Below are positions 38,638 to 38,731 of a stretch of DNA of 64,000 nt, piece by piece (the stretch's first letter is position 1; each line of letters starts with the position of its first letter). The notes under the pieces were generated by a model. The model had not been told where the DNA came from and did not search any database. It worked only from the letters and a program-made list of their open reading frames with translations. Source of the stretch: Pyrinomonadaceae bacterium. GTDB lineage: Bacteria; Acidobacteriota; Blastocatellia; Pyrinomonadales; Pyrinomonadaceae. The position numbers were made by a program, and so were the translations under genes. The DNA lies in contig DATFGP010000022.1 in the NCBI GenBank assembly GCA_035249365.1, positions 192,013 to 256,012 on the forward strand, written 5' to 3'.

Positions 38638-38731
38638 CGTCCGTTGTCAGTAGTCAGTCGTCCGTTGCATGTGACAACCGCACAAGTTGCTAAAGATTTG
38701 GATTGAACAACTGACAATGGACTACGGACAG
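38638..38731 (+). repeat. B-family heptamer-arm palindrome with conserved core, plus orientation
   Basis: cgtccgt-tgtcagt-agtcagt-cgtccgt ... 'tgcatgtgacaaccgcacaagttgctaaagatttggattgaacaactgaca' ... atggact-acggaca. It fills the nuoD-nuoE gap. Confidence 0.9.

Follow-up and report, generated by a model that had tools for sequence, protein, structure and literature searches.

In the gap between nuoD and nuoE of a Pyrinomonadaceae bacterium lies a hairpin-forming palindrome with heptamer arms and an asymmetric centre that reads in the direction of the flanking genes. The question raised by this element is whether the orientation of its centre reflects a function of the transcribed strand. The initial annotation of the window, by which we mean the whole 64,000-nt stretch of DNA that was analysed, described four such elements, termed the B family, and took a strand-specific RNA function to be suggested by the direction of their centres. 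We followed the family through the window, through related genomes and through metagenomes. In our judgement B is probably, if only just, a sub-family of lineage-specific junction palindromes that are tolerated through the way they fold, with a centre that is mostly the mark of a founder, flips in place and is under at most weak selection for the sense orientation.

Results

Anatomy of the B elements

All four B elements were recovered where they had first been placed, at 36661-36759, 38638-38731 and 48058-48179 on the plus strand and at 3803-3923 on the minus strand (n=4). They align over their full length with a mean column identity of 74%, and period-7 autocorrelation across the four gaps is 0.42-0.62. 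In every window copy the arms consist of tandem heptamers in inverted arrangement, GTCCGTT/GTCAGTN on the left and NACTGAC/NACGGAC on the right, with the units GTCCGTT and GTCAGTA/T/C in the 5′ array and AACTGAC, AACGGAC and TACTGAC in the complementary 3′ array. Across the family these units read 5′ GTC(A/C)GTN and 3′ NAC(G/T)GAC, with a centre of ~45 nt between them; the termini read (T)GTCCGTTGTCAGT...ACTGACAACGGAC(A) and the arms are variable heptamer arrays. One 13-mer of the arms occurs 21 times in the window, with 1.2 occurrences expected.

The centre is non-palindromic and takes the form CCGTTG-N15-CAAGTKRCTRAAGATT-N8-9-CAACTGACA in all four window copies. Its 16-mer CAAGTKRCTRAAGATT has four exact matches in the window and two weak ones with two mismatches, against 0.10 expected from shuffles (at most two mismatches). 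The consensus first drawn for it was only approximate; the copy at 36661 reads GTTGTTTATGTG...GCAAGTGACTAAAGATT. Read from the aligned copies, the 5′ arm ends in ..CAGTTGC and is followed by ATGTGA-N3-TCACA(C), a small variable hairpin, and then by a second (A)AGTTGC and by TAAAGA-tt-N-TCTTGAA-CAACTGAC. Within this centre CAAGTTGCTAAAGA is an imperfect complement of TCTTGAACAACTG.

The focal copy (38638-38731, +) fills the gap from the nuoD stop codon (38633-38635) to the nuoE ATG (38739) and has a predicted RNA minimum free energy of -33.8 kcal/mol (z -2.96). Its 5′ arm (38639-38667) is made of the tandem heptamers GTCCGTT, GTCAGTA, GTCAGTC and GTCCGTT and a final G. The variable mini-hairpin segment follows at 38668-38682 (CATGTGAcaaCCGCA; family consensus TGTGA-N3-TCACA), with pairs that are mostly invariant or broken and show no covariation, and the conserved asymmetric 16-mer lies at 38683-38698 (CAAGTTGCTAAAGATT). 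The variable spacer that follows (38699-38707) ends in TTGAA and, with the first bases of the 3′ arm, imperfectly complements CAAGTTGCTAAAGA; in this second helix 76% of cells are paired and there are no compensatory changes. The 3′ arm (38708-38730) is composed of a C, the units AACTGAC, AATGGAC and TACGGAC and a final A, and stops 8 nt short of the nuoE ATG; the interval lacks a Shine-Dalgarno sequence.

The copy in the nuoB/nuoC gap (36661-36759, +; 16-mer at 36706-36721) stops 1 nt before the nuoC ATG (36761) and is predicted to fold at -43.4 kcal/mol (z -6.6). The corresponding values in the nuoK/nuoL gap (48058-48179, +; 16-mer at 48104-48119) are 5 nt before the nuoL ATG (48185) and -56.3 kcal/mol (z -7.0), and orthologous copies of this element are found in contigs L033 and L062. 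On the minus strand, the gap from fabF (3928-5184, -) to etfB (3029-3802, -) holds the copy at 3803-3923 (16-mer at 3862-3877, -), the 3′ arm of which abuts the etfB ATG. In the four window copies the distance from 3′ arm to downstream ATG is thus 0-8 nt, and no Shine-Dalgarno sequence is present. A weak match that could be due to chance, CACAAGTGACTAAAGTTCAACAG at 62-77 (-), is a possible armless relic of the core; it has two mismatches (nhmmer E=0.014) and lies downstream of a response-regulator gene (123-548, -). About 19 kb of extra sequence from the same genome contained no new B copy.

Distribution and spread of the family

A Pyrinomonadaceae MAG and ENA assembly ERZ27257127 each encode a protein identical to the NuoD of the window. 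When one genome per species was scanned with a pattern consisting of the core and the start of the 3′ arm, 32 loci were found; 29 of them lie in eight Pyrinomonadaceae MAGs and all of these have B arms, and the other three are armless chance matches in unrelated phyla. Searching metagenomes with only the core as the pattern yielded 22 loci, 16 with B arms and six armless chance matches, and the centre is present in soil metagenomes, too. Because the core is found with B arms only and matches elsewhere are armless, the core belongs to the B arms and to the Pyrinomonadaceae, and its conservation reaches well beyond the four copies in which it was first seen. The invariance of the 16-mer is partly forced, as most copies were collected by an exact pattern. 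Copies recovered independently of the pattern, by nhmmer (L016:208, L031:2061, L035:511 and L036:1996) or through NuoD homologues (L062 and L067), retain GYTAAAGA and TTGAACAACTGAC and vary elsewhere. B arms were also found around other centres.

All B copies, in the window and among the collected loci, are intergenic, and inside operons they often occupy the whole gap. B elements spread or homogenise between non-orthologous gaps of one genome: the core nearest to a given B core, 3-8% distant, often comes from another, non-orthologous gap of that MAG. The nuoB/C variant of the window is nearest to the nuoK/L copies of L003 and L017. In other MAGs B elements are also often nested centrally in outer hairpins with GAACGAT/ATCGTTC-type arms (L002, L004, L005, L011, L013, L016, L018, L021, L024, L030 and L031), giving composite palindromes of up to about 190 nt with predicted folds down to -127 kcal/mol. 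The literature searched contained no description of such repeats in Acidobacteria or Pyrinomonas; the repeats mentioned in the Pyrinomonas genome paper are CRISPRs, transposons and RHS repeats only.

Orientation of the centre relative to genes

The window B gaps all lie between co-directional genes, NuoB/NuoC, NuoD/NuoE and NuoK/NuoL on the plus strand and FabF/EtfB on the minus strand, and the centre is sense in each of them, as the initial annotation had reported. This ratio (4/4, two-sided p=0.125) is not significant by itself, and co-orientation of four copies within one window is no evidence of a rule. For the wider count, genes were called by a home-made codon log-odds model trained on the window, with only some of the calls checked against Pfam, and orthologous sites were merged by tblastx of their flanks.

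Among the 34 independent co-directional sites, the centre is sense in 24 and antisense in 10 (71% sense, 95% CI 53-85%, p=0.024). Orientation is therefore non-random, but it is a tendency of only ~70% rather than the invariable co-orientation that had been proposed, and without the window's own four sites the ratio is 20:10 (p=0.10). Four convergent sites, one divergent site and two unassigned sites fall outside the co-directional class. B-armed elements with non-canonical centres supplied one further clear orientation (L035:1943, sense), the rest being ambiguous. For several antisense copies Pfam confirmed the flanking genes, whose products include Obg/L27, rhodanese/thioredoxin-reductase-like, UDP-glucose dehydrogenase, SDR, radical SAM and Ser/Thr kinase proteins. 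In nuo operons all 10 B copies are sense, representing perhaps four or five independent events.

Because absolute orientation is mixed within contigs, replication direction does not set it: minus- and plus-strand centres occur at 511 and 937 of L035, ~400 nt apart, at 4272 and 2061 of L031, respectively, and at L009 and L017, respectively, two loci that share one contig. In L035 the two elements (511-570, -, and 937-995, +) enclose a 107-aa rhodanese gene; one is sense and the other antisense.

Inversion in place

Ten orthologous sites were covered by two or more assemblies, and at three of them the centre is inverted between unchanged flanks. At these sites, once the centres are aligned the same way, the flanks on either side match in the opposite direction; identity is 82-94% and the element boundaries are identical. 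The flipped sites are the rpmA/obg gap (L006 and L008 vs L012), a sigma/anti-sigma gap (L043 vs L055) and a site shared by L054 and L052. The centres of L008 and L012 are mutual nearest neighbours (7% distance), which argues for inversion in place over independent insertion. The B arms are 25-35 nt long, or up to ~80 nt if nested; because this is below typical read and k-mer lengths, an assembly artefact behind the flips is unlikely, if still conceivable. The simplest route to the inversion would be recombination, or template switching, from one arm to the other.

In chloroplast non-coding DNA, hairpin loops that lie between inverted repeats undergo small inversions. As in those inversions, the loop of B flips between close relatives, stem and flanks stay unchanged and orientation is homoplasious. 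The chloroplast cases concern unique loci of an organelle, whereas B is a dispersed repeat family in bacterial operons.

Turnover of hairpins at the nuo junctions

The intergenic gaps of the window contain at least seven families of heptamer-armed hairpins. We compared the nuo junctions of the window with those of L056, L058, L060-L063, L065 and L067. The orthologous junctions (window 36657-36760, 37307-37423, 38636-38738, 45788-45883 and 48055-48184) keep a heptamer hairpin, and its family varies by genome: contigs with 95-98% NuoD protein identity (90-93% nuoD nucleotide identity) carry unrelated heptamer hairpins at the same junctions, with AGAGGTC, GTTAGCY, GAATGCG, GTGATGA and ATCAGCC among the replacement families. 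One family tends to fill several junctions per genome, namely B in the window, GTTAGCY in L058 and AGAGGTC in L056, L063 and L065. B persists at nuoB/C and nuoK/L in L062, the closest relative (92.6% nuoD nucleotide identity), whose nuoD/E junction has a GAATGCG hairpin; L067 has B at nuoD/E only, and the more distant L061 (80% nuoD nucleotide identity) has TTTTAGA arms at its nuo junctions. The nuoE/F gap is free of hairpins in the window and in L062, measures 20 nt in L067 and holds a 130-nt hairpin in L056, L058, L063 and L065. A GGGATGA hairpin at nuoG/H is common to the window, L058, L060, L063, L065 and L067. Orthologous B copies diverge about as fast as nuoD. Hairpins are thus gained, lost and replaced by other heptamer families over ~10% coding divergence, and such gain, loss and replacement, together with homogenisation, are the dynamics of dispersed repeats and not of a conserved RNA gene.

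Gene content also differs between relatives at some nuo junctions. Between nuoF and nuoG the window has a segment of 47-49% GC (40723-43465) encoding a NUDIX protein, a 338-aa ORF (also called as 325 aa) with no Pfam match and an AIRS/AIRS_C protein; at this junction the relatives have HicB/HicA, a 137-aa ORF or nothing. In L061 a TonB_C protein is encoded between nuoD and nuoE.

Other heptamer hairpins of the window

The 'A' family, with AGTGAC(A/G) arms, occurs at 9092-9190, 11023-11123, 13717-13815, 21660-21760, 37302-37427 and 54456-54559. Its centres, AAGTTAAAG..AAAAACTTGTC, are sense in most copies, and the copy at 9092 seems antisense or ambiguous. Further heptamer or near-heptamer hairpins lie at 2945-3028, 6655-6753, 18922-19043, about 21275-21330, 23696-23800 and 45788-45883, and the additional families of the window are CCATCAG/ATCAGCY, GGGAAAG, GGGGAAA (in a convergent gap, around an inner stem rich in GC), AGCTAAC, CGCAGAG and GGGATGA.

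A second asymmetric centre, AAACAGGTTGARTTTGCTGA, also written AAACAGGTTGA(A/G)TTTGCTGA, is sense in 3/3 cases and is framed by ATCAGCC/GTTAGCY-type arms (window 2945-3028, -; L056:9280-9371, +; L058:18821-18914, +). On the sense strand, the centres of 49 non-B heptamer hairpins taken from co-directional gaps of the window and of the collected loci have 14 occurrences of AAAC and one of GTTT (p=0.001, or 0.065 when corrected for 67 tests), AAAAC is found 11 times vs once, and there are weak trends of A over T and C over G. The AAAC excess hints at a general transcript-level constraint on hairpin centres.

A SAM_alpha (SAM-II type) riboswitch aptamer at 21525-21600 (41.2 bits vs a gathering threshold of 36) is followed by the 100-nt A-family hairpin at 21660-21760, which sets it apart from a fused homocysteine S-methyltransferase/MTHFR gene (start codon at 21757); once folded, this hairpin would draw aptamer and start codon together. 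At 28986-29450, in a convergent gap after a 1648-aa Big_2/LTD protein, A-type arms (AGTGACR at 28986-29020 and GTCACYT at about 29397-29440) surround a non-repetitive insert of ~350 nt, and this may be a composite or cargo-carrying element. The ENA assembly is interrupted within the hairpin-bearing convergent gap 1901-1963, where k141_1678096 ends near 1942 and k141_2483982 starts near 1946; the NCBI MAG contig of 330 kb bridges the break.

Folding, covariation and signal scans

On both strands, the predicted folds of the window copies lie between -34 and -56 kcal/mol. Averaged over 48 copies, the free energies of the two strands differ by 0.1 kcal/mol (forward minus reverse; Wilcoxon p=0.93), with 303 vs 305 G-U pairs; the stems are thus strand-neutral. 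RNAalifold on 52 aligned centres returned 0 pairs and no consensus fold. Two hand-drawn models, one combining the outer stem with the mini-hairpin and the other the mini-hairpin with CAAGTTGCTAAAGA/TCTTGAACAACTG, both draw their pairing from invariant columns, and their covariation is at shuffle level in the centre and marginal in the arms. For the helices of the centre it amounts to 0.065 vs 0.059 in shuffles, with 55 of 500 shuffles reaching at least that value and one pair showing double changes. The compensatory changes that the initial annotation suggested looking for therefore do not exceed shuffle level in the centre. The mini-hairpin closes with a G-U pair in 13 copies and with an A-C mismatch in 3 (p=0.02, uncorrected, in copies related by descent).

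At gathering threshold Rfam gave no match to B, the SAM_alpha riboswitch elsewhere being the sole match in the window; at E<=10, B matched only sub-threshold miRNA-hairpin models (at most 26 bits vs gathering thresholds of 63-130). A scan for sigma-70 promoters and intrinsic terminators yielded nothing in B elements above shuffle expectation. None of the intrinsic-terminator calls corresponds to an entire B element, and the 3′ arm is not followed by a T-run. By eye, the GG of a sigma-54 site (-24 GG / -12 TTGC) is absent, and the IHF (WATCAANNNNTTR) and CRP (TGTGA-N6-TCACA) sites show wrong spacing or mismatches. Because a mini-ORF from the ATG of GCATGTG reads ATG-TGA in 21 of 52 copies and the ATG is absent in several, there is no conserved peptide.

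Discussion

Relation to known intergenic repeats

B elements appear closest to the STRR hairpins of cyanobacteria and next to the TAACTGA arrays, and the REP/REPIN sequences may serve as an analogue for their population biology; the defining sequence features of all three are lacking in B. The heptamers of B differ from the STRR1-3 units CCCCAGT, TTGGTCA and CAACAGT, and the host of B belongs to the Acidobacteriota, all genuine matches lying in Pyrinomonadaceae MAGs and not in (heterocystous) cyanobacteria. In both cases tandem 7-nt intergenic units in inverted arrays form a hairpin between co-transcribed genes, and for the STRR hairpins of filamentous cyanobacteria, for example at hupS-hupL, a role in transcript stability or translational coupling has been proposed (PMC2670836). 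The passages on STRR hairpins drawn on here mention neither a conserved asymmetric centre, which in B spans ~45 nt and defines a dispersed family, nor its flipping (PMC2670836).

The TAACTGA intergenic arrays of marine Beggiatoaceae, some Cyanobacteria and Bacteroidetes (MacGregor 2015, PMC4679880) resemble B in that the 3′ units of B, CAACTGA, TACTGA(C) and CAACGGA, are one or two bases away, and also in their position within a few nt of start codons (0-8 nt upstream in B), in their Shine-Dalgarno-free gaps and in copy-number steps of 7 nt. Unlike B, they are direct repeats in a strongly forward orientation, with one indirect repeat reported (PMC4679880). Because every B array has an inverted partner, the arms of B read alike on both strands, and only the centre is oriented.

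Like REP/REPIN sequences, which RAYT transposases mobilise, B elements are extragenic, highly repeated inverted doublets that may form hairpins of ~100 nt in single-stranded DNA or mRNA (PMC3116915; PMC3733652), with a less conserved intervening sequence and a habit of clustering, nesting and evolving within genomes (PMC3116915). The arms of B are slippage-prone heptamer arrays, in contrast to a fixed REP of 20-40 nt with a GTAG or CGTC head (PMC3733652). The best-conserved part of B is moreover its centre and not its arms. Compared with a MITE, B has inverted termini whose length varies by 7-nt steps; by eye, flanks that complement each other (AAAGC...GCTTT) are commoner than directly repeated ones, and no empty B site was recovered. 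Because neither a mobilising enzyme nor a target-site duplication nor an empty site was identified for B, we only infer that it is mobile.

A proposed reading: a tolerated palindrome with an inherited centre

The transcript of a B element, or its single-stranded DNA, would snap back into a long hairpin. Such a hairpin would reduce the distance from the upstream stop codon to the downstream start codon to about 10 nt at its base, and the 3′ arm would leave an A/C-rich, Shine-Dalgarno-free leader beside the AUG; in this way an insertion at an operon junction could be tolerated. The centre would be mainly the inherited mark of a founder, in which a ~20-nt mini-hairpin (TGTGA-N3-TCACA) and a duplicated AGTTGC had been put into the 5′ half. 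Before that insertion or duplication of ~20 nt, flanked by AGTTGC, the ancestor may have been a symmetric palindrome (..CAGTTGCTAAAGA / TCTTGAACAACTG..). An insertion into a symmetric palindrome would make the asymmetry inherited and not designed.

Some of our observations count against a purely neutral reading. A share of 71% sense in spite of flipping exceeds what pure neutrality would give, the nuo operons are sense in every case (10/10), the non-B loops have AAAC in 14 cases vs GTTT in one, and GYTAAAGA and TTGAACAACTGAC persist in copies that the exact core pattern did not collect. The nuo ratio, the AAAC excess, the trends of A over T and C over G and the uniform sense orientation of the AAACAGGTTGARTTTGCTGA centre (3/3) make a weak transcript-level or transcription-coupled pressure on hairpin tips plausible. 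In transcribed gaps, the ~70:30 excess of sense centres in B would reflect at most weak selection on orientation, or biased insertion, and does not appear to indicate an obligatory strand-specific RNA motif.

Alternative explanations

A strand-specific RNA function of the B centre, which was the original proposal, is a possibility and not a conclusion. In its explicit form, CUAAAGAUU and its neighbours would be presented at the tip of an intercistronic hairpin and be recognised or cut by an RNA-binding protein or endoribonuclease, which would process or stabilise operon segments or free a small RNA. RNase E is reported to prefer RN|WUU, which the AG|AUU of the B centre fits. The 24:10 bias (p=0.024), the 10/10 sense copies of the nuo operons, the persistence of the core in at least eight MAG species and in pattern-independent copies, the preponderance of G-U over A-C where the mini-hairpin closes, in favour of the forward strand (13 vs 3, p=0.02, uncorrected for shared descent), and the AAAC sense excess in the loops of other families all speak for such a signal. 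We nevertheless regard it as unlikely, because ten well-supported antisense copies lie in tight gaps between verified genes, centres flip in place between close relatives, the centre has neither covariation nor a consensus fold, Rfam gives no match, relatives diverged by ~10% lack B at the same junctions and orthologous copies diverge at about the rate of nuoD.

A broader possibility, to which we assign a small chance, is that the junction hairpins as a class are a lineage-wide, selected operon-junction device of the Pyrinomonadaceae. The position would be kept while the sequence is swapped per genome, stop and start codons would be held together, and the tip would carry a sense signal (A-rich, AAAC-type or CUAAAGAUU) for an RNase or RNA-binding protein. 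The arms would be built and homogenised by a dedicated mechanism, and the B centre would be one allele of an intercistronic processing or coupling module.

It is improbable that B is a REPIN- or MITE-like non-autonomous element with an orientation set by its transposition machinery, for example an IS200/RAYT-type single-strand transposase acting on the lagging-strand template, in which case the correlation with genes would be a by-product of their strand bias relative to replication. The inverted doublet, extragenic, nested and spread within genomes, is indeed REPIN-like (PMC3116915), and the cumulative GC skew of the window has its minimum near 28-30 kb, the switch point of both gene strand and B orientation. 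Absolute orientation is nonetheless mixed over short distances (L035, L031 and L009/L017), flips preserve exact element boundaries, and arm lengths change in steps of 7 nt, unusual for defined transposon ends. The ORFs checked in the window and in the ~19 kb beyond it include no transposase, and no target-site duplication is visible.

That the centre is a DNA regulatory site (promoter, terminator or protein operator) for the downstream gene is very improbable, in spite of its position directly upstream of start codons and of a superficial likeness of TGTGA-N3-TCACA to CRP-type half-sites as known from the CRP consensus, because the half-site spacing is 3 and not 6 and the pair positions vary, sigma-70 and terminator scans stayed at shuffle level with no T-tract, copies sit within the nuo operon, in which neither a promoter nor a terminator would be expected internally, and others are antisense or in convergent gaps.

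Implications

If the sense bias is functional, the B elements would represent an unstudied way to organise polycistronic mRNAs, in a host phylum that abounds in soil, is difficult to culture and seems to have few Shine-Dalgarno sequences at these junctions. Even if the elements are selfish or neutral, hairpin centres have been seen to flip in place, and repeat families are swapped at fixed junctions within ~10% coding divergence, which bears on the origin and turnover of REP-like repeats. Repeats of the B type also bear on assembly breaks and on strain typing in Acidobacteriota metagenomes.
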